Assembly: GCA_000503875.1 (NCBI GenBank)
Contig: CP006913.1
Span: 240,001-272,000, forward strand
Reading direction: 5' to 3'
Origin: Candidatus Saccharimonadota bacterium
GTDB taxonomy: Bacteria > Patescibacteriota > Gracilibacteria > Absconditabacterales > Absconditicoccaceae
Length of the DNA stretch: 32,000 nt
Below, piece by piece: positions 2,772-32,000 of this stretch (positions are counted from its first letter, which is position 1; every line of letters starts with the position of its first letter). The notes under the pieces are model-generated. The model was not told the origin of the DNA. It did not search any database and worked only from the letters and a program-made list of their open reading frames with translations. The translations under genes and the position numbers were made by a program.

Positions 2772-4763
2772 ATGAAAAAAATATTCTTTTTATTAATAGC
2801 AAGTATATGCATATCACCAGCATTCGCAAGCGAATGGAATTTACCTGGTATTGAAATTATTTCTCGTAAAGATCGATGAGCTGATGAATCAATCAGATAT
2901 ACCAAAATGTCCTATGCAGAACGTAAAGCACGATTAAAATCCAAAACAGAAGAGGAAATGAAAACATTGGAAGAGACAGATTTTGATGAATTTTTTGAAA
3001 AACAAAAAGCAGAATATGAACAAACAATGAGAAATGATTATTTACAATCAAATTTTCCAGAAGAACAAAAAGTTAATGATGTGGTTTATCAACTGGGAAA
3101 GAATTATCTCAAATGGCCACAAAGTTATCATTATGAAAAAAATAAAATTATAGTCCATCATACAGCTGGCGATACTTCATCATTTACTGGAAAAGAAAGT
3201 GTAATAGCATATCTAAAAGATGTTTATAAATTTCATACTATTACGAGAGGTTGGTGAGATATTGGTTATAATTTTTTGATTGATTCATACGGAAATATTT
3301 ATGAAGGAAGAGCTGGTGGTGATAATGTTATTTGAGCACATACTAATTGGAATAATACCCCAAGTGTAGGAATTTCTTTGATGGGAAATTTTGATATTCA
3401 AAAACCAACTCAAGAACAAATCAAAAGTTTGATTTCTCTGATTACTGCATTGAGTAAAAAATACAATATAGATCCTACTGCAAAAGCTGAATATCATAAA
3501 GTACTTACAGATATTCCTTATATGAAATCAGTTGAAGCTGGAACCGTTGCAGGTCATAGAGATGCAGGAGTAACATCTTGTCCAGGGAAAAATTTATATT
3601 CACTTCTTCCTGAAATAAAAACAATGGTAGTGAATACTATGGCAAAAGGAGTTTTGGTTAGTTCTTCTGAAATAATGAAGAGTATTCCAACGGCAAAAAC
3701 CAGCAAAACAGCCACAAAAAATACAGCAAAAGGATTGGATAATTTAAAAAAACGACAAGCAGCATATGATAAAATTTCACTAGCTCTTCAAAATACCTAT
3801 ATCAAAAAACATGGTACAAAAAAAGCAACAGTTTCTTCCAATAAAATTGCTTTTAAAATAAATAAAGATGAAGCTAAAAAATTATTGGATTCTGATATTT
3901 CCGTGTTATTATATGAATTATCAACAGCATTTATGCAACGGGATATTTCTTGTTCATCTACTTGTTTTTTTGTTACTCCATCATGAACTTACAAAGGAAC
4001 TTCAGCCAATATAGAAGTAGCCGAAGGTGGTTTACTTTTGCAGGTGGGATGAGAAAAATATACGGAGGAATCTATTAAAATTCAAGCAAAAGGAAACGAT
4101 CTTATCGAAATAAAAAATTATCCAAGAGTTTCTTATTTTAAAATACCTTGGAATACTTTTTATGGAAGTCTAACTTTTGAAAAATGACAACTTAAAAATC
4201 TCAAAACAGGAAAATTTGAAAAACAATATACTATAGTTAATACCTTATCTTTCCATAAATATCTCAAAGGAATTGTAGAAACAAATGATTCTGAAGATGC
4301 TGAAAAAATCAAAACAATGAATTTGATTTCAAAAGGATATGCATTATTTTATAAAAACTCGAAAAACAAACATCCATCAATTCCTGATGGTGCAAAATAT
4401 ACTGCTATAGATAGTCCAGAAATGTTTCAAAAATATGTAGGAGCTGGAGTAGAAAAAACATTAAAGACAGTACCTGCATTAGTAGATGAACAAAAAACTG
4501 AAGTCATTTTTTATGATAATTATCTTCCTATTTTACCATATTTTAATTGTTCACCAGGATTTACTCGATCAGCAAAAGATAAACGAGGATGGTCAGATAC
4601 GCCATATCTAGTATCGAGAATTGATATGGAAAAATGTACTGATTTTAATGGACATGGAGTATGACTCAGTGGAAAAGGAGCTCAATATTTTGCTAAACAA
4701 GGATGGACATATAAAGAGATTTTAGAATACTACTATCCAGGAATACAAATTTTAACATTGTAA
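2772..4763 (+). CDS. Secreted peptidoglycan hydrolase fusion: N-acetylmuramoyl-L-alanine amidase (PGRP/Amidase_2) plus SpoIID/LytB domain
   Basis: Signal peptide MKKIFFLLIASICISPAFA. Amidase motifs are ISRKD-W(CGA)-G(TGA)-ADES, HHTAG, GW-G(TGA)-DIGYNFLID and GHRD...TSCPG. C-terminal GHGV-G(TGA)-LSGKGAQYFAKQGWTYKEILEYYYPG is the SpoIID signature. It joins tracked ORFs 2907, 3378 and 4317, all in one frame. Confidence 0.88.
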
Positions 4764-5784: not shown

Positions 5785-7851
5785 ATGCATGTTCTAGAAG
5801 AAAAGAAAATATATCAAGATACAGAAAGGTATATTGATACCCAACAACATTTACGTGATGGTATTCAATTTTCTTTGGTAGTAGAATTTCAATCAGAAAA
5901 ATTTGTAGAATATCAAAAAGATTTGCTTCAAGAATTTGTGGCAGATTTTGTAGATGGAATCACAGACACTGAAGAGCATGATAATGATGCAGTGAGAGCA
6001 AAATGTGAAACAGCACTTCAGGAATTAAATACAAAACTCAAAGCTTTTGCAGATAAAGTTCGTGATATAGAATATTTTCCTATCAAAGGATATATGCAAA
6101 TTATTCTTGGGACTACACTTATTTCTTCTATGATAGGAAATGCAACGGTTATGATTTTAAGAGATCGTAAAATTTATTATACGTTAACAAACTCTACAAA
6201 AGTAAAAGGAAAAATAGATTTGTTTTCTGAATTTATTGAAGGAGATTTAGAAAGTGGCGATGAGGTTATCTATATAGGAACAAGAATAACAGATGTTTTG
6301 GATGCATATGATGTAAAAGATATCGAACAAATCCTTCAATCAGAAGAATGAAGTATTATTGGATTTATGGATGAAGTATTAACATCAAGAATAGAAAAAG
6401 AAAATTTGGGATTTTTGATGGGATATACAATTCAATGAATGACAAGGAAATCACATATGAGCAAAAAAATATCACTAGATAATTTAACATCTAAATTTTG
6501 ATTTATTCAAGAATGGAAAGAAAAGTTTTTCAAAAATAAATATCAAGTAACTGTTGGTATACTCAGTCTATTTATAGCATTTATGCTCTATAGCTTAGTT
6601 ACCCAATTGCTCAAAAAACCACAAGGAGAAATATATATAAATCCTCAAGGAGTTACCGTTGATCTTACTATAGATGATATCAAAAAAGATATCGTATTGT
6701 TCAAATCTATGGATCCAACAGGTGATGAAAAAGCAATGAAATACCAGGAAATAGTTAATAAAATTACTATTTTAGAAAAAAGAGGAAGATGGATAGAAGA
6801 TCTTCAACAATTACAAAAAATTCTCAAAGCTGATTATTATAAAGGATTCAATATCATAACAGTAAATAATCTTTCTCAATTTGACGATCCAGTATTGGGA
6901 AGAAAAACAACATTGATGTCGTTCAATACAAGTGAAAAGTCTACACTCTGAGAATTAAGCAAAATAGAATATGCAAAAGATATTCTTATCGCATGATCAA
7001 AAGCAGCGTTGTTAGGTGTGGTCAACGAAAATAGTAGGGGATCATTAGTAAGTTATAATATTGATGATACAATAGAAAATTGTAGTTTAAATCTTTTGAG
7101 AAATGGGTTCTATTGTTATACTACAAACGGTAAAATTTACGTAATAGCTAGATCAGGAATAGAGTCAGTTACTACTGCAGATCCAGATGGATTTCCTATG
7201 TCAATATGAGGTATTGGAACGTATGGAAAATCAAATATGTATGTTTTTGCCAAAAATGTTACTAATTTAGCAGATAGTACATTGGTAGTAAGATACCGCA
7301 ATACATTATGATCTCAATCAATATACCAACAAGGACAAAAATATATGATGACTCCAGATGTAGCTACATGATTAAATTTTGGATCAGGATTTTCAACATT
7401 CACTATTGATGTAAATTTTCTATGATGGTCTCAGTGAAAGCTATATCAATTTCGAAGAAATCCAGCAACATCATTTAATCTAGCTTATCGTGAAATTAAA
7501 TTGTTGGGTGGTGATACAAAAACTATGAAATTATCTGATGATGTAAAAATCGTTACACCTTCAAATTCAAGATATGTATATTTGTTTGATAGAGTTAACC
7601 AAACATTTATGGTATACGAATCTCGTCCACTCAAAACAAATGATCAATATGCAACAAGTTATAATCTTTATTATTTGTTTAGTTTCGCTTTTGATCTAGG
7701 AAATAATAAAGTAGTAGATGTTACTATTCCAGATGAATTGTGAAATAGACCAGAATTATATGTATTGACTCAAGCTGGTATCAATAAAATTCAACTTCAT
7801 GAATTTGTTGATAGTATCAAAAACAATAACGTATTGAAACAAGTTAATTAA
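5785..7851 (+). CDS. Hypothetical single-pass membrane protein (688 aa)
   Basis: ATG 5785. One frame joins ORFs 5743, 6583, 7009 and 7501 through about 13 TGA codons, ending at TAA 7849-7851. A central TM segment (VTVGILSLFIAFMLYSLVTQLL) separates a roughly 230-aa N-terminal domain from a roughly 440-aa C-terminal domain. The N-terminal region faintly resembles a degenerate PP2C/SpoIIE fold (weak). Confidence 0.7.
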
Positions 7852-7931: not shown

Positions 7932-7983
7932 ATATACGCCAAGAAAAAATCAGACTCTTTTATTTTATGTGAATTATTTTTGT

Positions 7984-9564
7984 ATGAAAACAATATCTTC
8001 ACAAGAACTTAGAAATCTACGAAATACATTTTGGGAATCTAAACAACACAAATATCTTAGCGAAGTTTCTCTTATTGCGGATAAGGAAAGTACAGCGATG
8101 TTTAATGTGGCGGGGATGCAACAATTGATTCCATATCTTATGGGTAAACCTCATGATCTAGGAAAGAGAGTATTTAATATTCAAAGATGTATTAGAACTG
8201 TTGATATAGATGAAGTAGGGGATGCTTCGCACCTGACATTTTTTGAAATGATGGGAAATCGATCACTCGGAGATTATTTCAAAAAAGAAGCAGTAGAACG
8301 AAGCCGAGAGTTTTTGACGAGCAAAGATTATTTAGCGATAGATCCAAAAAAGCTTGCAGTAACCGTATTTCAAGGAGATGAACATACACCAAAAGATGAA
8401 GAGACAGCGTCATATTGGAAGAATGTAGGTATGACCGAAGATAAAATTTCATATTTACCAGCAAAACATAATCGATGGAGCCCAGGACCAGTTTGACCAT
8501 GTGGCCCAGATACAGAAATATTTTATCGAGTAGGTGCGGGAGATTTGCCCCCTGTAGGAAGCAATGTAGAAAACGATGAAGATAACTGGATGGAAATTTG
8601 GAATAATGTATTTATGGAATTTTATCGTGATGAATCAGGTACGCTTACCAAATTGAAACAACAAAACGTAGATACCGGAATGGGATTTGAAAGAATGTGT
8701 AAAACATTGCAAAACAAAGAAACAGTTTACGAAAGTGATTTGTTTCAACCAATTATTGATGCTATTGCGATTTATACAAAACTTGCTTACAAAGATTATC
8801 AAAGAAGAATGAGAATTGTGGCGGATCATCTTAGAACTGCAATAGTTCTTATCAATGATGGAGGTTTTCCATCCAATGTAGGAGCTGGATATGTACTTAG
8901 AATGATTATTAGAAGAATGTATTATAATTTGATTTTGCTCAACGATTCGGTTAGTGATGGCTATGAATCATTATTTGACGAAATTATTGCTTTTGTAGGA
9001 ACTCAACGCAAACTTACAAATTCTTCTGCGATTTTCAAAGTGATCAAAGATGAACTCGCTCAATTCAAAAAAACGATAGCAAACGGAAATAAATTATTGC
9101 AACAGATGATAGATAAACATCCAGCTCAACTAGCAGGTAAAGATATATTTATGCTCTACGATACCTATGGATTCCCTGTTGAGCTTACCAGAGAAATTGC
9201 CAGTGAAAAAGGAATCAAACTTGACGAAACCGGCTTCCAGAAATCACTAGAAGAAGCTCGCGAGAAATCTCGTCAATGAACCAAAGAGATGTTTAAGAAA
9301 GGAACTGATTGGTCAAAATATTTAGATGGAGTAAAACCAACCAAATTTATTGGTTATGATCAAACAAATTCAGAGTCTCAGAAACTTATCAAAGATTTTG
9401 AGGTAGACGGACAAAGAGTTTTAATCTTTGATCAAACGCCTTTCTATGCAGAATCCTGAGGTCAAACCTGAGACAAAGGAAAAATTATTTTAGATGATGG
9501 AACTGAAGTAGAAGTAATTGATGTAAAAAAATATGAAGGAGTGTTTTTGCACTTGGTGAAATAA
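7984..9564 (+). CDS. alaS: Alanine--tRNA ligase, C-terminally short form (526 aa; no editing or C-Ala domain)
   Basis: Motifs: FFEMMGN-W(CGA)-SLGDYFKK, AVE-CGA-S-W(CGA)-EFLT, HN-CGA-WSPGPV-G(TGA)-PCGPDTEIFY, VDTGMGFERM, ADHLR, TPFYAES-G(TGA)-GQT-G(TGA)-DKG. The frame ends at TAA 9562-9564, inside the beta-barrel that precedes the editing core, and is followed by a strong terminator. Confidence 0.9.
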
Positions 9565-15949: not shown

Positions 15950-16687
15950 ATGAAATACCTCATATGAGCCAATTTTAAAATGTACAAAAGTCATAAAGAT
16001 TTACAGGAATATTTTGATCAGTTTGTAAATAATTATGCCTGTTTTGTAAATATTGACCTGATGATTGCACCAATGACCGTGTGTTTGGGAACCGCTTCAG
16101 AAATGACCAAAGACAGTTGCGTGCATCTTGGGGCTCAGAATATGCATTACGAAGATCAGGGGGCATATACCGGAGAAACTTCGCCATTGATTCTTAAGGA
16201 ACTTGGTGCTGAGTACGTGATTATCGGACATTCAGAAAGAAGACAATATTTCGGCGAAACCAACCAGATGATCAATAAAAAGCTCAAATCAGCTTTGCAA
16301 CACGGTATTAGACCAATTCTTTGTATCGGAGAAAACCTCGAGCAAAAAGAACTTGGTATCAGCAAAGAAACCTTGAAAATCCAATTACGCGAGGCATTAC
16401 AGGGAATTGATACTCTTGATCAGATAGATGTTGCCTACGAACCTGTGCGAGCAATCGGAACTGGGAAAAGCGCGACTCCAGAAGAGGTCCAAGATATTCA
16501 TGAGTATATTAGATCAGTTCTTGGAAACGAAAAAAGCAGAATTATCTATGGCGGAAGTGTAAATGACACCAACGCAGACATCTTGATCGCTCAACCTGCA
16601 GTCAACGGCTTCCTTATCGGCTCTGCCAGCCTCGATCCTCAAAAATTCCTAAAGATCTTGGATGTGGTATCTAAGAAAAATAAATAA
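15950..16687 (+). CDS. tpiA: Triosephosphate isomerase
   Basis: True start is MKYLI-G(TGA)-ANFKMY, upstream of the tracked ORF. Motifs: GAYTGETSP, IIGHSERR, AYEPV-W(CGA 16448-16450)-AIGTG, IYGGSV. Confidence 0.93.
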
Positions 16688-16692
16688 ACCAA

Positions 16693-16905
16693 ATCTATCA
16701 AGGTCGATAGCACAGCGAAGTATTGTAAACCTTAAGTGAAAATGGAAGACTATGTTGTTAGCCATAGGGAGCCCTGGGACTGTTGGTGGGTGTTTGGCTT
16801 GTCTTATTGGGAGTGATATGGAAAAATATCTGATGAGAGCGCTGCTAGCGACTAGACCTTTTTGGTTACTTTTTGGGGCAATGCTAAAAAGTAACATAGA
16901 AAAAT
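16693..16905 (+). repeat. Structured intergenic element, copy A (candidate cis-regulatory RNA or ncRNA)
   Basis: It shares with copy B a 5' box, ATCTA..AAGG.CGATAGC(A/G)CAGCGAAGTA (16693-16722). It also shares a 3' hairpin, TTTTTGGTTACTTTTTG-loop-AAAAAGTAACAT (16859-16897; 10-bp stem 16865-16874/16886-16895). The core is G+C-rich. The 5' box can pair with CGCUGCUAGCGACU (16839-16852). Confidence 0.55.
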
Positions 16906-16933
16906 TAATTTTAACTTATTACTATAATCTACA

Positions 16934-18295
16934 ATGATAACTTCAACAAACCCATACACGCAAGAAACTACAAAAACCTATGAACAAATGTCCCGAGACG
17001 AGGTAGAATCCAAAATCAACCAAGCCCACCAAGCATTCTGAAAACGGAAAAAAACATCTTTCGCAGAAAGAAAAACATATATGAATAATTTTGCAAAATT
17101 AATGCAAGACCAATTCGAAGACCTAGCAAAACTAGATACCCAAGAAATGGGAATGCTTTATAAAGATGCAAAAGGAGACGTGACAAAATCAGCTTCTAAT
17201 ATCGGTTATTTTGCAGAAAATGCAGAAAAAATTCTCGCACCAAAACCATTTGATCAAGATGGTCTCAAAGGAGAAATTGTTTATCAACCCAAAGGAGTTA
17301 TTTTCTCTGTGATGCCATGGAATTATCCATTTAATCAAGTCTTGAGAAGCGCAATTCCAAATATTATGGCAGGGAATGTCGTATTGATGAAACACGCATC
17401 CAATGTCCCTCAAGTTGCCGAAAAAATCGAACAATTGTTTGCACAAGCAGGCTTTCCGAAGGGTGTATATACCAACCTTTTTCTTCCTCACGAATTTACC
17501 GAAAAAATTATCGCTCATCCTTTGGTAATTGGAGCAAATGTTACTGGTTCTGATGCTGTGGGGAGACAGATTGGTTCGCTAGCTGGAAAATACCTCAAAC
17601 CTTCTGTGCTTGAACTTGGAGGAAACGATCCCTTTATTGTTTTAGAAACAAACGATCTTGATGCTATTGTTAAACAAGCAATTAAAGGCAGATTTTCAAA
17701 CTATGGTCAGAAGTGTAATTCATCGAAAAGATTTATAGTCATCGAATCGATGTACGACGCGTTTTGCGAGAAATTTACTGCAGCAGTTAACGAGTTCACC
17801 ATAGGTGACCCGATGAATGAGGCAACAGATATCGGACCGTTGGCAAAAGCTTCCGCTGTCAAAGATATCGATGCCCAGGTACAAGCAAGTATCCAGCAAT
17901 GAGCCATCCTTTTGACAGGCGGAAAACCTTGATCAACCTTCGGACCAAATTTCTACTTGCCAACGGTCCTCAAAGATGTGGTTCCTGGTATGAAAGTCTT
18001 CGACGAAGAAGTCTTCGGTCCTGTTGCTCCTATAAGCAAAGCCAAAGATATTGAAGAAATTATTCACCTAGCAAACCAAAGTATCTATGGGCTTTGATGT
18101 TCAATTTTCTGAGATAACAAAGAAGACAAAGAATATATTGCACAACAGGTAGAAGTTAGTAATGCATTTATTGATAAAGTAGTGACAAGCTATGCCTTCC
18201 TTCCTTACGGAGGAATCAAAAATACCGGATATGGAAAAGAATTATCAGAACACGGACTGAAGGTATTTATGAATGAAAAAGTGATTGTAAAGTAG
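16934..18295 (+). CDS. NAD(P)+-dependent aldehyde dehydrogenase (succinate-semialdehyde dehydrogenase-like, YneI/GabD type)
   Basis: MITSTNPYTQE...AF-G(TGA)-K-W(CGG 17045-17047)-KK..ERK. Motifs: MPWNYPFNQV, ELGGNDPFIV (catalytic Glu), GQKCNSSKRFIV (catalytic Cys), EEVFGPV, PYGGIKNTGYGKE. It joins tracked ORF 17081 and runs through TGA codons to TAG at 18293-18295. Confidence 0.9.
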
Positions 18296-23576: not shown

Positions 23577-24653
23577 TTATTCTTTTGCCATGGTCTCTTG
23601 AAGAAGTCTAGTTTGATTTTCAAGGACCATTTTTTCCATAATATCATCAAGATCTCCTGTCAAGACAACAGGTATGTTTGACCAAGATTCGTGAATACGA
23701 TGATCAGTTATTCTATCTTGAGGAAAGTTATATGTTCTGATTTTTTCTGATCTATCTCCTGTTCCAATCTGGTTTCATCTCAATGTTTTTTCTTTTTCCA
23801 TTTTTTTATCTAATTCAATCTGATATAATCTGGATTTCAATACAGAAAACGCTTTTTCTTTATTTTGTAGTTGGGATTTGCTATCTCCAATATTTACAAT
23901 CAATCAACTTGGGTTATGATGAATTCTAACTCCTGTTTGATTCTTATTGGCATTTTGTCATCCAGCAGAAGAAGCTGCATATGTTTCCATTTGAATATCT
24001 TTTGGATCAATAACGATATCTACGTCTTCTGCTTCAGGCATAATAGCAACGGTTACGGTCGAAGTATGAACCCTTCCTTGTGATTCTGTAGCAGGAATTC
24101 TTTGAACTCTATGAACTCCACTTTCAAATTTCATAAGAGAGTAGACTTTATTACCAGAAATTTTTACAGTAACATCTTTAATTCATCAAATATCAGAAAG
24201 TTGTTCATCTACAATTTCTGTTTTCCAACCTTTTCTTGTTGCATATCAAAGGTACATTTTCAAAAGTTCTGTAGCGAAAAGTCCAGCTTCATCACCTCAA
24301 GCTGCAGGTCTAATTTCTAAATAAATATCTTTATCATCATTTGGATCCGTCGGCAAAAGAGCAATCTTGATACGTTTATCAAGGTCTTCAAGCTGAATTT
24401 CAGCGTTTTCTAATTCTTCTTGAGCCATAGCTAGCATATCTTCATCTGTCTCATTTGTAAGTATATCTTTGGCCTCAGTTACTTGGCCAGCATATTTTCT
24501 ATAAGAAACAGCAAGATCATATACTTCTTTCAGGTTTGAAAGTTCTTTGTTGATAGCAATATATGATTTCATGTCATTCATAGCAGCAGGATCCATAGCT
24601 TGTTCCTGTAGTTGAAGATATTTTTTTTCTATAGTTTGTAATTTATTTAACAT
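23577..24653 (-). CDS. prfA: Peptide chain release factor 1
   Basis: PAA-G(TGA)-[19 protein letters not shown] carries the PxT tripeptide of RF1, not the SPF of RF2. SSAG-G(TGA 23958-23960)-QNANK is the GGQ motif. [22 protein letters not shown] follows. Five in-frame TGA codons; TAA at 23577-23579. Confidence 0.95.
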
Positions 24654-24707
24654 GGTAATAAGTGAAAATTTAAAACATTGTTATTAACTAATAGATTTCT
24701 CTTTTTT

Positions 24708-24913
24708 GTTTTTCGCTCCGCTGGGGATATTTTTAATGTTACTTTTTGCTCCCAGGTCAAAAAGTAACCAAAAACCCCTCGTGAGCTGTTACATTTTCTT
24801 AACGGTAGAAAACACAAACAAATTCGACTCCATATTTTCTTACCTAAAAATGTAAACGCTCACCTATTTTATTAGTGTAGATTACTTCGCTGCGCTATCG
24901 CCTTCTAGTAGAT
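24708..24913 (-). repeat. Structured intergenic element, copy B (candidate cis-regulatory RNA or ncRNA)
   Basis: Minus strand: ATCTACTAGAAGGCGATAGCGCAGCGAAGTA (24913-24883), then a long imperfect hairpin (GUGAGCGUUUACAUUUU...AAAAUGUAACAGCUCAC). Next comes GGGGTTTTTGGTTACTTTTTG-ACCTGGGAG-CAAAAAGTAACAT..AAAAATATCCCC. It fills the gap between the S2P stop codon and the prfA start codon. Confidence 0.55.
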
Positions 24914-24931
24914 ATTTTGATCTTTGTATCG

Positions 24932-27910: not shown

Positions 27911-27950
27911 AAAAAATAAAAAAACGTATGCACTATAACATACGTTTTTT
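27911..27950 (-). terminator. Rho-independent (bidirectional-looking) terminator after the pilin-fusion gene
   Basis: 10-bp stem aaaacgtatg/catacgtttt with A/T runs on both sides. Confidence 0.75.
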
Positions 27951-27973: not shown

Positions 27974-30058
27974 TTAGTTGATAATCAAGAAGTTGGTAAC
28001 AATATATCCGGTTCCTATAACTATAATTCCAATGAAGATATATAATAAACTATTTTTGATTTTTTTCATAGCATCTGGACTATCTGGTTTGAGTAATAAT
28101 TGGAATGCTTGAACTAAAACCATAATGAGAATTACCAATGCAGCCAATCCCATTGCCCAGTTAATAATTTCATACAAGATAGGTAGATTTTTGTTTGCCA
28201 AAAGTCCAGATCCAATTTCTCATAGGTTACTAACTGCTTTTACTACGTCTTGCTGTTTTCCATAAATAAACTCAATAACTTGTTTTGCTCAAATAATAAT
28301 AAACATACCAAGTACATTCCAAGCAATAATAGTTCCTGCTTTTTTCTTGGCATCTTCATCAGTTCCAAAGACAAATGTTAATGCACGAGAGGCCAATAAA
28401 ACAAATAATACGCCAAGTGCTAAATAAATAGCCAATTTAATAAAAGGGAATGCAATTTTTTCATATATTTTTTGTGCTATTTCATATCATTGTAATTCTC
28501 CATAACCTATATTTCCAGTAAGAAAAATATCATTATAAAGTGTTGTTGAAATAAATTTTGCACTCATAATAACGATAATTCCCAATACTCAATAAACAAT
28601 ATAATTAGTACCTTCACTAATAGCTTTTTCATCACTAGAAAATAAAATTTTATAGAACCCCAAAAGAGAAATCAGAATTCCAATAGTTATAATAAGAGGA
28701 ACTAATACATCCATAATTTTTTTTAGTAAAAAATCTTTTACTGCATCTGCACCAGGTGTAGCACTTACATCACTTAAAATTTCTGGTGCATCAAGATTGT
28801 TTTTGATACTATCAATTGCTCTATTCATTGCGATATCAAATCTTTCTGCTTTGATGATAGCTACTGTTCATAATCGAGTGTTATTACTAACAACAGTTTC
28901 TTGATCTCGTTTCTTTAATTCACACGAAACTTTTTTGTCACCCAAAGATTGAGTAAATATATCTTTTAGAATTACAGTTTGTTTGAGTGATGTTCCAGGA
29001 TTAAGAGTAAATTGGACTAGTTTTTTAGATTGATAAATAACGAGTTTTTGTCCGTTATCCATATGCCAATAACAAGTTAATAATCCAGCGGGAACATTTG
29101 CTTTATTTACAAGATTAGTTCCTCGATTTTTTATAAGAACATCAAGGGATGGACTAGAATATTGTGCAAAACTAAGTAATCATCAAGGGAATTTTACTTC
29201 AAGTCTAAGGTCAACCCCAGTGACAAGTCATCAAGTAACCTTACATCCTAAATATTTAAACACATTTCGATTGCCAACAATTGCTCAATTATTACAAGAA
29301 AGTGTAGTAGAACTTTGAGCACAAGTTTTTGGAAACAATACTTCTTGTGCAGAATATGCAGTAATTCCAGAACCGTGAAGGATCGGAACACCTCCTATAT
29401 TACAATCAGCAGGAAGTCAGTCTAAACAAGTATCATATGGATATTGATTAAAATCACCAATAAATGTTCCATTGGTACAAGAAAACATAGATCATATGTT
29501 TACACATTTTTTTGGATAGATACTAGTCATAGTAGAATAATAAATTTTTGACCATCAATGAGGATAATCTGTATTATTTACTGTACATATTTTAAATCAA
29601 AGATCGGTACATCATTCATATATTGCATCTGGATTTCCTCATTCCCATATTCCATCTGTACAAGTTAGAATAACCTTTATTTGTTCACATGTTTGGGTAT
29701 TTGTTGACGTTGTAGATGTGTAACCAACCAAAGAATTTCTATTGGCTACAAATTGTTCTAGCCAAGGATGAATACATTCATTATCTCTTCTTTCGCGACA
29801 AGTTTCATAAGGATAATCATCGATATCATAACTATTTGGACTTATAAATTCTCAATTTTTACATTGAAAATTTGATAATGTTTCTATACATGTTTTATCA
29901 TATGTAGATACATCTATTTTATAAAATCCTGTATAATCCAAATGATTAACAAAATTTCATGAAGGGGTTTCACAAGGTTCTGTTTCTTGTGCAAATGTAA
30001 TAAAAGAAAATGTAGATAAGACTACGGTTAATAAAATGGAGTACATAAAGCGTTTCAT
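27974..30058 (-). CDS. Secreted Cys-rich ectodomain protein fused to three VirB2/TrbC (T4SS pilin)-like membrane hairpin modules
   Basis: ATG at 30058. Signal peptide MKRFMYSILLTVVLSTFSFITFA, four Cys-patterned repeats, an Ig/CARDB-like segment, then six TM helices arranged as three pilin-like hairpins. In frame with tracked ORFs 28868, 28589 and 27974. About 20 TGA codons; TAA at 27974-27976. Confidence 0.75.
27977..28730 (-). repeat. Three tandem pilin-like (TM-loop-TM) modules (protein level)
   Basis: IMDVLVPLIITIGILISLLGFYKILFSSDEKAISEGTNYIVYGVLGIIVIMSAKFI / IAFPFIKLAIYLALGVLFVLLASRALTFVFGTDEDAKKKAGTIIAWNVLGMFIIIGAKQVI / IINWAMGLAALVILIMVLVQAFQLLLKPDSPDAMKKIKNSLLYIFIGIIVIGTGYIV. Confidence 0.6.
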
Positions 30059-31065
30059 TATGATTTTTTTGAAGTAAAAGGTTTGATAATGGTAGTAATA
30101 AGAAGTACAAGTTCTCTCATTAATGGCAATGCAGGACTACGTCCCCATATCCAAAGCATAACACTATATCTTACCAAAACAAGAAGTACAGTAAGAATAG
30201 CTAGTCATGAAATATGTCAGAGGTCTACTTGCCAAAGAAGGATAATAATACAAATCAATAATAATCAATATTGTCGCTGAATGCTTCCAAATTTTTTGAT
30301 ATCATAGAGATATTGATATTCGTTTTTTATATTTTCAACTAAGAGTTTCCAATATGGACGATTGTAATTTCCGTGAAAAAGAAACACAATACTTCACCAT
30401 ACATATCACCAAATTTCTTCTGGATTTTTGTAAAATAAAGAAGAAACAAATTCTGATATAGATTTGGGTATAATATCGATATTTCCAAGTAAAGTTACTA
30501 TTCTTACGAGTATTACTATTCCTATAAATACAGCAAAAAATGGTGTTGGAGCAAGACATGATATACCAAATAAGATCCATAGAATAAGAGATTCTTTTAT
30601 TAAGATATCAGGTGTATCAAAACTATGTTTCATATATCGAAGATAAACAGAATATCCAGGTAAATATGCTAAAAAAGAATGTGCTTTATCAAGATTAGTA
30701 TATTCAGTGAATTCACTTTTGTTCGACAATGATGTTTTCTTTATTATTTTGATTTCTGTTATTGCTCAAATACATCCAATACCCAAAAGAGCAACCAAAA
30801 TACCAACAATAACTTGATAAATTATAGTAAGAATATCTATTGTATAAAAATAAGAAAACAGACCACTCAATAATGCTAATCCTACCAAAATAAGATTGAT
30901 CCATCCCAAAGAAATATATCCTTGAACAAAAAGACGATCTTGTTCGTTTAATTCGAGACTGTCTCCCTTAAGTAAATGGGTAATAAACGGAGAAAAAAAC
31001 ATCAAAGAAGCCAGACTTAATTGAATTTTTAATGATTGATTATTTGCTTTTTCCTCAATATTCAT
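30058..31065 (-). CDS. Polytopic membrane protein (335 aa), candidate VirB6/TrbL-type channel component
   Basis: Tracked ORFs 30766..31065 and 30406..30729 share one frame and are joined by a single TGA (30763-30765). The frame continues through 5 more TGA codons to TAA 30058-30060, which overlaps the next ATG (TAATG). There are 7-8 hydrophobic segments. Confidence 0.65.
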
Positions 31066-31100
31066 AAGATATATATATTCTAAGTGCTAAAAGCTAAGAG

Positions 31101-32000
31101 CTATTTTACATCAGTAGTAATAAATTCTTTCTCTGTTGGAGAAGCCAATACTTTGACCCCTACGTGCTGTTGCCCCGCAAAAATGAGCCCTTCTCCAACT
31201 CCACAAGATACCAACCTTCTTTGCTCTGCCTCAGAGAGTCCAAGCAGATCATTGAGCGCTTTGATAGAAGTGGTAGATTGTTTAAGCAATATTTGAAGAG
31301 ACGAGTTAGAAAGAATAGGTTTTCCATACTTACTTCTTACGAAGTCTTCAATATCTTGAGAGATGGTAGTAATTCCAAGTCCATATTTTCTGGCTCTTTT
31401 GATAAGTCCAAATAAGAATTCTGCAGAAGTTTCATGTTGAAGCATAATCCAGGCTTCATCACAGATAAGTAATCTTTTCTTTTTCTGTGATCTTACTTTG
31501 GTCCAGATAAAGTTCAAAACGTTAAACATCGCAGGTGTTTTTAATACTTCTTCAAGATCTCTAATACTAAAAACGGTCATTGCATTGTTGATATCTACGT
31601 TAGTATAGTTATTGAAAAGTTTTCCAAAGGTTCCAGTAACATATTTACTAAGTTTAAGCGCTATTTTTTCTCCACCATCCATACCATCCAAAACATTCAT
31701 CAAATCTTCCATCAATGGTGGTTGTTTGCCTTCATATGACATAGCTTCCAAAGAAAATCCTTTTAAGCTATAGGTACTTTGAATTGCTTTATCCAGAAGA
31801 GCTTCTTCTTCAGTACTTAAATCTCCAATCAATAATTTCACTAATCCAATAAGTGCCATAATCTGACTTCTCAAAAGATCTCCTTTCCCGTAATCAACAT
31901 CACTAATTTGTGGAGGAATATCAAATGGATTAATAAATTGTTGTGAACTTGTAGCAATATTTACATAGGTACCACCTACTTTTTGAGCAAGCGTTTTGTA
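31101..32000 (-). CDS. VirB4/TrbE/TraC-like type IV secretion ATPase (C-terminal part; continues past window end)
   Basis: FINPFDIPP, KKKRLLICDEAWIML (Walker B DEAW), ARKYGLGITTISQDIEDF, LSEAEQRRL. Open to position 32000; TAG at 31101-31103. Confidence 0.85.
   Translation of the reverse strand, partial: YKTLAQKVGGTYVNIATSSQQFINPFDIPPQISDVDYGKGDLLRSQIMALIGLVKLLIGDLSTEEEALLDKAIQSTYSLKGFSLEAMSYEGKQPPLMEDLMNVLDGMDGGEKIALKLSKYVTGTFGKLFNNYTNVDINNAMTVFSIRDLEEVLKTPAMFNVLNFIWTKVRSQKKKRLLICDEAWIMLQHETSAEFLFGLIKRARKYGLGITTISQDIEDFVRSKYGKPILSNSSLQILLKQSTTSIKALNDLLGLSEAEQRRLVSCGVGEGLIFAGQQHVGVKVLASPTEKEFITTDVK

Follow-up and report, generated by a model that had tools for sequence, protein, structure and literature searches.

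A hairpin module in two intergenic spacers of a UGA-recoded SR1 bacterium belongs to a family found in several bacterial phyla and in phages

In the window analysed here (32,000 nucleotides [nt] of contig CP006913.1, from an SR1-like bacterium), two intergenic spacers share several sequence blocks. One lies between tpiA and an aldehyde dehydrogenase (ALDH) gene (copy A), and the other lies between a site-2 protease (S2P) gene and prfA, the gene for release factor 1 (RF1; copy B). Are they two copies of one cis-acting structured leader that co-regulates ALDH and prfA, as an earlier note made from the sequence alone had implied, or do they belong to something wider? We found that the 3' hairpin of both spacers is a genuine member of a hairpin family that occurs in at least three bacterial phyla, and that it corresponds to the 3' domain of the family unit. 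Modularity, turnover, multi-copy dispersal, occurrence across phyla and in phages, structural constraint and lack of gene association were all observed for this family. On balance, we take the spacers to be mosaic copies of non-autonomous structured repeats and not a regulator of ALDH and prfA.

Blocks shared by the two spacers

Both copies lie on the strand of their flanking genes and carry their blocks in identical order. The tpiA-ALDH spacer is 246 nt long and the S2P-prfA spacer is 278 nt long. Their parts and neighbouring genes are as follows.

16693-16704 (+): copy A upstream flank, ATCTATCAAGGT, in the spacer alignment loosely like ATCTACTAGAAGG of copy B
16705-16722 (+): copy A 5' box, CGATAGCACAGCGAAGTA; matched twice in the window (none expected); not found at E<=10 by R1, the covariance model of the family box described below
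16723-16829 (+): copy A core, GC- and G-rich, with no relative detectable by similarity comparison
16830-16852 (+): copy A second box-like stretch, CTGATGAGAGCG-CTGCT-AGCGAC, which contains CUGAUGAG; predicted partner of the 5' box (minimum-free-energy fold, sequence comparison)
16852-16897 (+): copy A 3' hairpin, CTAGACC-TTTTT-GGTTACTTTTTG-GGGCAATGCT-AAAAAGTAAC-AT, of the CTAGAC/GGCAATGC subtype; arms exact at 91 metagenome sites
16907-16922 (+): copy A pre-start block, AATTTTAACTTATTAC, 11 nt ahead of the ALDH start at 16934; exact here and in copy B only
24883-24913 (-): copy B 5' flank and 5' box, ATCTACTAGAAGG-CGATAGCGCAGCGAAGTA, upstream of the point where copy-B-type repeats align; not found by R1
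24781-24864 (-): copy B core, a long AT-rich hairpin, GGTGAGCGTTTACATTTT...AAAATGTAACAGCTCAC; a dispersed repeat in its own right, seen at other loci in SR1-like contigs
24736-24780 (-): copy B 3' hairpin, GAGGGG-TTTTT-GGTTACTTTTTG-ACCTGGGAGC-AAAAAGTAAC-AT; identical module at several SR1-like loci
24712-24722 (-): copy B third box core, AGCGGAGCGAA; pattern AGCRNAGCGAA, three in the window against 0.04 expected
24655-24670 (-): copy B pre-start block, AATTTTCACTTATTAC, 1 nt ahead of the prfA start at 24653; shares the pattern AATTTT(A/C)ACTTATTAC with the copy A block
15950-16687 (+): tpiA, upstream neighbour of copy A
16934-18295 (+): ALDH gene, downstream neighbour of copy A
25582-24932 (-): S2P gene, upstream neighbour of copy B
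24653-23577 (-): prfA, downstream neighbour of copy B

The 5' box, CGATAGC(A/G)CAGCGAAGTA, is identical at 17 of 18 positions between 16705-16722 (+) and 24900-24883 (-), and even with up to three mismatches allowed these remain its only matches in the window. The 3' block consists of TTTTTGGTTACTTTTTG, a 10-nt loop and AAAAAGTAACAT (16859-16897 [+] and 24774-24736 [-]). Its 5' arm is exact twice in the window, its arms agree at 29 of 29 positions between the copies, and the hairpin that they form is AT-rich. A further common block of 16 nt, AATTTT(A/C)ACTTATTAC, lies just before the start codons (16907-16922 and 24670-24655) and is exact nowhere else in the window. A general start-region signal, for which a similar string at fusA might have spoken, was dropped, since exact matches are confined to the two spacers and looser ones are at chance level. 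The third box core (AGCGGAGCGAA, 24722-24712) directly follows the copy B hairpin, and all three AGCRNAGCGAA matches of the window are in these two spacers and in the orientation of the elements. With GC contents of 0.38 and 0.33, the spacers are the most GC-rich of the window (other spacers, 0.13-0.32; whole window, 31%). The blocks common to both spacers are not a product of chance.

These data bear out the GC-richness, the 5' box in the same order and orientation and the hairpin with identical arms that the earlier note had described. Its further structural claims held in part. The flank that it placed ahead of the 5' box is present in both copies, ATCTATCAAGGT and ATCTACTAGAAGG, but the two are only loosely similar. 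The long helices that it described for both cores are weakened, as the copy B spacer folds only modestly better than shuffled sequence (z = -2.2) and the copy A spacer as a whole no better (z = +0.12). In copy A, the minimum-free-energy fold does pair the 5' box with 16839-16852, but copy B has no equivalent pairing. Likewise, the proposed distance of about 35-55 nt from the end of the element to the start codon fits copy A, whose hairpin ends 36 nt before it, but not copy B (82 nt).

A polar hairpin family in several phyla and in phages

We searched metagenomes with a pattern of the two hairpin arms and a loop of 6-16 nt (24 specified bases). Exact arms were found at 91 sites, about 80 of them distinct, in 86 contigs with GC contents from 21 to 61%. 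Both window copies match the commonest version of the family exactly (T-tract, GG(T)TAC-T(n)-G arm, loop, C-A(n)-GTAAC-A arm). The subtype of copy A, including its CTAGACC flank and GGCAATGC loop, recurs in contigs of 42-54% GC (L037, L087, L102 and L115; L numbers denote the loci and contigs compared). Exact look-up of a few flanking proteins assigned host contigs to Saprospiraceae (L071, L086), Chryseobacterium (L041, L100) and Spirochaetota (L036, L039). In several other contigs, protein C-termini resemble sorting domains of the type IX secretion system, which we take to be typical of Bacteroidota. Hairpin variants with four Ts were present in Parabacteroides, in intergenic DNA without annotation, and in the microvirus MH572371 (Microviridae), in its non-coding region. 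Among cultured phages and plasmids, only weak variants were found, in 'plasmids' of Parabacteroides and Bacteroides and in two Microviridae, all of them in unannotated DNA. The family reaches high copy numbers in places, with at least nine copies at uniform coverage in the assembly ERZ857757, six box modules in the 4.5-kb contig L087 and tandem pairs elsewhere.

Comparison of these sites revealed that the family unit is polar, intergenic and composed of two domains, namely a conserved 20-nt box, CTGTYTGAGCG-N-AGCGAGTT, inside an outer helix, followed by an interleaved hairpin. In domain 1, the outer helix of 8-12 bp encloses CTGT(Y)TGAG...(R)(Y)GAGTT and an apical insert of 1-128 nt, and the sequence of the helix differs by lineage. 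Domain 2 reads, in order, X, a pyrimidine tract, a pyrimidine-rich arm, X' and a purine-rich arm, where X is complementary to X' and the two arms are complementary to each other. The k-mers CTGTTTG and GCGAGTT were found at 15-19 sites upstream of the hairpin and at 0-1 sites downstream. The fetched DNA (about 780 kb) contains 24 distinct box modules, every one of which has such a hairpin downstream on the same strand.

Both domains carry signs of selection on pairing. When 29 minimal boxes were aligned without gaps, pairing in the outer helix was 81%, compared with 46% in shuffles, and all ten of its pairs show changes on both sides. Its covariation score reached 0.86; shuffles gave 0.23, with 0 of 500 as high, and slid partners gave 0.12-0.32. 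The covariance model (R1) was built and tested for this box helix. In domain 2, the mean contiguous X/X' stem is 3.55 bp, compared with 2.2 bp after permutation (maximum 2.59 in 200 permutations), and 23 distinct versions of at least 4 bp were found. The X/X' stems of the window, 2 bp in copy A and 3 bp in copy B, are inside the permuted range. The arms covary as well in copies outside the search pattern (GGCTAC/GTAGC, GGGTAC/GTACC, GGTCC/GGAC), with tracts that range from T3/A3 to T7/A7. The pyrimidine tract ahead of the hairpin matches the arm tract in length and in its interrupting Cs, which suggested a likeness to the triple-helix pseudoknots known from telomerase RNA, SAM-II and ENE-type elements, where helices are also interleaved. 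Unlike those, the family has very short connecting loops, and a direct-repeat register of the tract fits at least as well as the Hoogsteen-parallel one (35 versus 4 cases). We do not claim a triple helix here.

The canonical minimal box was present in 22 viral contigs, where about one was estimated by chance. Of the 20 viral box contigs that reach far enough, 15 have the interleaved design with other pyrimidine- and purine-rich arms. Four box-bearing viral contigs are P2-family prophages, in which the units occupy intergenic gaps of P2-like late operons; the relatives of their capsid protein all infect Proteobacteria.

How do the window copies relate to this canonical unit? Their 5' box has AGC-RCA-GCGA in common with the family box and lacks the junction strands and the outer helix, with 4-5 bp of possible outer pairing. 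R1, built on the 29 boxes, found no match at 16693-16740 or 24870-24915 (E<=10, filters off). Because the 5' boxes lack these canonical parts and the hairpins are exact, the window elements are best described as intact 3' domains joined to lineage-specific or degenerate material.

No protein gene accompanies the family. In an all-against-all clustering of the open reading frames (ORFs) that flank the metagenome and viral sites, no neighbour recurred, and a partner protein such as a transposase, TnpB/IscB, a reverse transcriptase or a recombinase was therefore rejected. Orientation relative to the neighbouring genes (crude gene calls) was likewise without preference (++ 13, -- 9, +- 9, -+ 8).

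Some single sites are worth recording. The nine ERZ857757 contigs (L034, L042, L044, L081, L088, L090, L091, L099, L055) represent one genome of about 48% GC, in which the hairpin sits inside a larger repeat (at least 400 nt), preceded by some 250 nt of conserved sequence and followed by a series of further small T/A-tract hairpins (GCTTTTCG...CGAAAAGC, GTTACTTTTG...CAAAAGTAAC). In MH572371 (L124), a 4-kb microvirus, the variant sits in the 330-nt non-coding region (3875-3975); it reads CTAGCC-TTTT-GGTTACTTTTGGGCAATGCCAAAAGTGACAT, a four-T variant of the copy A subtype, and is followed by a second T/A-tract hairpin. In L038, the hairpin (3414-3444) is about 45 nt past the 3' end of a tmRNA gene (tag GNNTELNWAVA; 3489-3832) and adjoins a tRNA-Leu gene, an adjacency seen for none of the other copies. 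An extra small hairpin is inserted between the T-run and GGTTAC at the identical point in two unrelated lineages, with 42 nt in SR1-like contigs (L049 7240-7290, L095, L103, L067) and about 19 nt in a contig of about 50% GC (L076, L107 at about 6080-6145). The junction between T-run and GGTTAC seems to be a preferred site for nested insertions.

Turnover of modules in orthologous spacers

We fetched contigs with orthologues of the flanking genes, in which ALDH is 92, 89, 84 and 77% identical and prfA is 91, 87 and 84% identical to the window protein. The tpiA-ALDH spacer measures 128, 105 and 31 nt in three relatives, and the S2P-prfA spacer measures 303, 140, 447 and 269 nt. The 5' box and the GGTTAC hairpin, with mismatches allowed, are absent from seven orthologous spacers (L028, L030, L031, L132; L032, L033, L129/L130, L131). 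As the element is missing there in spite of 77-92% identity between the flanking proteins, it is very unlikely to be a conserved leader or regulator of ALDH or prfA.

In place of the element, these spacers contain other hairpin repeats or next to nothing. A different palindrome, GTCATTGCGAGCGAAGCGTGGCAATCC..., lies in the tpiA-ALDH spacer of L028 and L030 in opposite orientations and in the prfA spacer of L033. The core hairpin of copy B is inverted at the prfA locus of L032, L129 and L130, where neither box nor 3' hairpin accompanies it. Because the spacers differ between relatives in repeat content and orientation, we regard them as hot spots of hairpin-repeat gain and loss. In full, the palindromic repeat reads GTCATTGCGAGCGAAGCGTGGCAATCCA...TGGATTGC...TCGCAATGAC (L028 5605-5690 [+], L030 3310-3385 [-], L033 9893-9975 [+]) and does not occur in the window. 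A third family of hairpin repeats (...TCGCAATAAA(A/G)GACAA...TATCGCTGCTTTTTGGCTACA...TTATTGCTCGATTT) is found in the S2P-prfA spacers of relatives (L129 3600-3760, L131 3760-3930, L032 8465-8500) and about 150-250 nt upstream of the hairpin copy in L080.

The modules of the window elements have separate histories. The copy B core together with the hairpin recurs at unrelated loci of SR1-like contigs (L049 [twice], L059, L067, L072, L095, L103); L080 has the 3' hairpin without this core, and at L049, L059, L072 and L103 the core occurs without the 5' box. Alignable similarity among copy-B-type repeats starts at ATAAAATAGGTGAGCG, downstream of the window 5' box, and the 5' box is thus not part of that repeat. 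Within the copy B core hairpin, 4 of 29 pairs stay paired through changes on both sides. Nothing similar to the copy A core was found in the fetched loci (about 780 kb) or in the roughly 50 kb of this genome that were compared. The 5' box gave 24 single matches in unrelated taxa in a scan of 185,579 species genomes and three matches in unrelated contexts in a viral scan, all of which we took as chance; a widespread motif was ruled out on this ground. No more copies of the 5' box and hairpin were found in the relatives or in about 18 kb of extra flank of the same genome, and the hairpin copies within the roughly 50 kb of this genome are the two of the window.

The earlier note had proposed one homologous structured RNA with a variable core, and this does not stand, as the modules have separate histories. 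Further copies and covariation, whose absence would have spoken against the note, do exist elsewhere for the 3' hairpin, its family and the copy B core; the 5' box and the copy A core have no relatives. The outcome that it had named as contrary to its reading, blocks that are the ends of a known transposable element or a generic terminator, comes close to what was found for the repeat parts; they match neither a known family nor a generic terminator.

Two ORFs overlie copy A, one of 61 amino acids (aa) at 16752-16937 (+, code 11, NCBI record) and one of 82 aa at 16649-16897 (-) that begins inside the hairpin (ATGTTACTTTTT). Both are probably repeat artefacts. A coding explanation was rejected, as the ORFs are shared only to the extent that the DNA repeat dictates, the loops of the family are not multiples of three and the hairpin stands at the start of the ORF.

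Interpretation and genomic context

Known RNA classes do not account for the element. Rfam 15 at gathering thresholds gave no match at the elements in the window, and searches of both spacers at E<=10 gave noise only; at permissive thresholds (E<=1-10), 34 related loci had nothing at the hairpin or the box. The earlier note could match the element to no riboswitch, T-box, SRP, 6S, tmRNA or RNase P consensus, and the Rfam scans agree. ARAGORN found neither a tRNA nor a tmRNA in the window. Literature searches by literal sequence and by concept yielded no description of the family, and the matches to CUGUYUGAGCG were eukaryotic 5.8S rRNA and primers. The family thus has no Rfam model and no trace in the open-access literature, an absence that is no proof of its being undescribed. 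Near its 3' end, eukaryotic 5.8S rRNA has a conserved stretch with exactly the sequence of the junction strand CUGUYUGAGCG, a likeness that we regard as coincidence.

Under the reading that we favour, small hairpin modules would accumulate and turn over in the intergenic DNA of the SR1-like lineage. The units may spread as selfish DNA, copied or moved by a trans-acting factor that recognises the folded single strand (DNA or RNA), and horizontal transfer, plausibly on phages, may carry them from one phylum to another. Within the window, such units would serve at most as passive spacers between genes. Similar behaviour is seen in BOX of Streptococcus pneumoniae, BIME/REP of Enterobacteria and ERIC/IRU, where non-coding hairpin modules occur in varying order and number, in many copies and in either orientation, and turn over fast; the window spacers and their orthologues do the same. 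These families are genus- or family-specific, whereas here one module is letter-conserved across phyla, and the wider family consists of polar units of two domains that carry a conserved 20-nt box. REPs bear GTAG or CGTC tags and are linked to RAYT transposases; the window hairpins have no such tag beside them, and no RAYT gene was seen within about 50 kb of this genome. Miniature inverted-repeat transposable elements and other non-autonomous elements (Correia/NEMIS, palindromes derived from IS200/IS605) are also small, structured, non-coding and dispersed in many near-identical copies, and the present family extends to phages as well. Its polarity, in that the two ends carry unlike hairpins, is reminiscent of IS200/IS605, with its distinct left and right ends. 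Unlike such elements, the family has yielded no terminal inverted repeats, target-site duplications or cognate TnpA/TnpB, and the free covariation of its helices between lineages contrasts with the sequence conservation that is normal for transposase-binding ends.

Several points weigh against this reading. No transposase, terminal inverted repeats, target-site duplication or pair of filled and empty sites was recognised, and mobility is accordingly deduced from distribution only; the orthologous sites have diverged too far, or hold other repeats, for insertion borders to be defined. The AGCG-N-AGCGAA cores that flank the copy B core and hairpin are 15-20 nt from the repeat borders and hence are not a target duplication. 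Helices that covary between paralogues of one genome show selection on the fold, which fits a functional RNA such as a ribozyme no less well than a transposition substrate. With two hairpin copies in about 50 kb, abundance in this genome is unproven. The 5' box and pre-start block, common to two spacers only, could mark a genome-specific element. Furthermore, eight of the nine SR1-like hairpin copies lie 35-82 nt upstream of a co-oriented gene, which hints at a local role in expression within that lineage.

The main rival, which we rate as rather unlikely, is that the family represents a class of functional structured RNAs, for example a small ribozyme that cleaves itself or some other non-coding RNA that is catalytic or binds protein. 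The window hairpins would then be full or partial copies of that RNA, transcribed with their flanking genes; this and the repeat reading are not mutually exclusive. Such classes are typically scattered over phyla and phages, multi-copy and without fixed gene partners. The small ribozymes hammerhead, twister, pistol and hatchet resemble the family in their patchy spread across phyla and phages, their multiple copies and lack of gene association, and in their conserved junctions within covarying helices, variable optional inserts and pseudoknot-like pairing. The family's conserved junction nucleotides in strongly covarying helices with the optional 1-128 nt insert, its two interleaved covarying helices of pseudoknot-like topology and its polarity, with the box always 5' of the hairpin, all point this way. 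So do the sites in a microvirus and in late-operon gaps of P2-like prophages (many hammerhead and twister ribozymes likewise lie in intergenic gaps of phages), the compensatory changes between paralogues within one contig (L087) and the few wobbles of the arm helix, which are G.T on the strand shown (for example, GGTTAC/GTGAC). Against it, an attempt to assign the strand from G.U versus A.C pairs failed, as there is no asymmetry (G.T versus A.C, 11 versus 19 in X/X' and 5 versus 14 in the outer helix); the linker from X' to the 3' arm is 0-3 nt, short for a classical H-type pseudoknot; no Rfam ribozyme or other non-coding RNA model matches, even permissively; and the window copies, which lack the canonical box, are at best fragments. 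The box CUGUYUGAG...GAGUU is superficially like the hammerhead's CUGANGA...GAAA, and copy A even contains CUGAUGAG (16830-16837), but the family box is a self-closing structure of two helices without the three-way junction or the GAAA strand. A hammerhead was rejected for these reasons, together with the lack of an Rfam match (E<=10) and the absence of the motif from copy B.

Alternatively, the hairpin may have been co-opted as punctuation, to end transcription in an unconventional way, to protect RNA 3' ends or to insulate co-directional genes (tpiA|ALDH, S2P|prfA) from each other, with the pre-start block possibly acting as a promoter or leader. Both window copies do fill spacers between co-directional genes, the position of the SR1-like copies ahead of co-oriented genes agrees with such a role, a variant lies in the non-coding region of a microvirus, and the 5' T-run with its frequent 3' A-run makes the element alike on both strands. 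Like intrinsic terminators, it sets a hairpin beside a T-run in an intergenic spacer. Unlike them, it has the T-run 5' of an AT-rich stem. Scans for the terminator consensus (GC stem, then T-run within 0-2 nt) found no site in either spacer, nor was a sigma-70-type promoter consensus found in either. A GC stem abuts the T-run at 4 of 68 family sites, compared with 3% of control T-runs, so that the T-run is not the tail of a GC stem; a generic terminator was ruled out by the consensus scans and this family-wide test. Across all taxa there is no preference of orientation or position, and the same spacers of relatives lack the element, one of them being only 31 nt long. An ordinary bidirectional terminator-like hairpin (AAAAAACGTATGC...CATACGTTTTTT) is present at 27919-27950 between two minus-strand genes; conventional terminators thus exist in this genome and look unlike the element. 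We consider punctuation improbable. More improbable still is a double-stranded DNA site for a dimeric protein, with 11-bp inverted arms and a spacer of mostly 6-7 bp in the geometry of Xer/tyrosine-recombinase sites or operators. The near-perfect inverted repeat GTTACTTTTTG - N5-10 (mostly 6-7) - CAAAAAGTAAC, letter-conserved across phyla, the lack of strand asymmetry and the frequent multiple copies, as in the multi-copy pdif sites of Acinetobacter plasmids, would suit such a site. In the wider family, however, the arm sequences covary instead of being conserved, the spacer varies from 4 to 16 nt, its complementarity to the upstream flank (X/X') is nothing that a protein site would call for, and no recombinase or regulator gene recurs nearby. 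The co-regulating leader that the earlier note implied is largely refuted, and we give it almost no credence. In its favour are the same order and orientation of the blocks upstream of both genes, the GC-rich spacers and the lack of a matching known family. Opposed to these are the absence of the element from the orthologous spacers, the unrelated cores with the chance-level fold of copy A, the inversion of the copy B core in relatives and the lack of gene association over about 80 sites of the hairpin family; furthermore, we know of no functional link between ALDH and RF1.

What, then, might the box-hairpin unit be? Possibly, though we think this less likely than not, it is an undescribed structured nucleic acid shared across phyla, which would work either as a new RNA (self-cleaving, otherwise catalytic, or mobile) or as folded single-stranded DNA on which a mobilising enzyme acts, and which moves between Bacteroidota, Spirochaetota, Proteobacteria (prophages), recoded SR1 bacteria and microviruses. 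If selfish, such DNA would be unusually promiscuous, with hosts of 21% and 61% GC and of both the standard and the UGA-recoded code, and would be a marker of horizontal transfer into bacteria of the candidate phyla radiation; if a functional RNA, it would be a new widespread class. In either case, modelling and masking the element would stop spurious ORF calls, such as the 61-aa ORF of the NCBI record over copy A. A tempting annotation is also removed, as ALDH and RF1 do not share a riboswitch-like leader.

The window is 99.99-100% identical to contig DPJE01000002.1 of assembly GCA_003543185.1 and to ENA and Logan assemblies, of which one comes from a sediment metagenome, and the sources of homologous proteins label them Gracilibacteria, Absconditabacterales or SR1. 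With regard to the genes of the window, TGA is a sense codon throughout. ORFs called with table 11 are broken up and TGA readthrough gives the long ORFs back, as in ALDH (in-frame TGA at 17040) and in prfA (23577-24653). The database entry for the window RF1 has Trp at the in-frame TGA positions and is thus a code-4 translation. The sense reading of TGA that the earlier note had assumed is confirmed by the restored ORFs and by this entry. Public protein collections store the window genes either as code-11 fragments (the NCBI metagenome-assembled genome) or as code-4 versions with Trp, as in P0121, where code 25 would give Gly. An AlaRS-like ORF at 7969-9564 encodes only about 530 aa, with a tRNA-synt_2c domain, and the gene after it codes for an unrelated surface protein; the ORF is possibly a shortened AlaRS. 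From 27974 to 31874 and beyond (L126 8913-9965), there is a type IV secretion or pilus-like cluster with a DUF87/TraG-like ATPase and a protein like type IV secretion system pilins. This cluster adjoins secG, the S2P gene and prfA, and the gene order is kept in the relatives L032, L033, L129 and L131.

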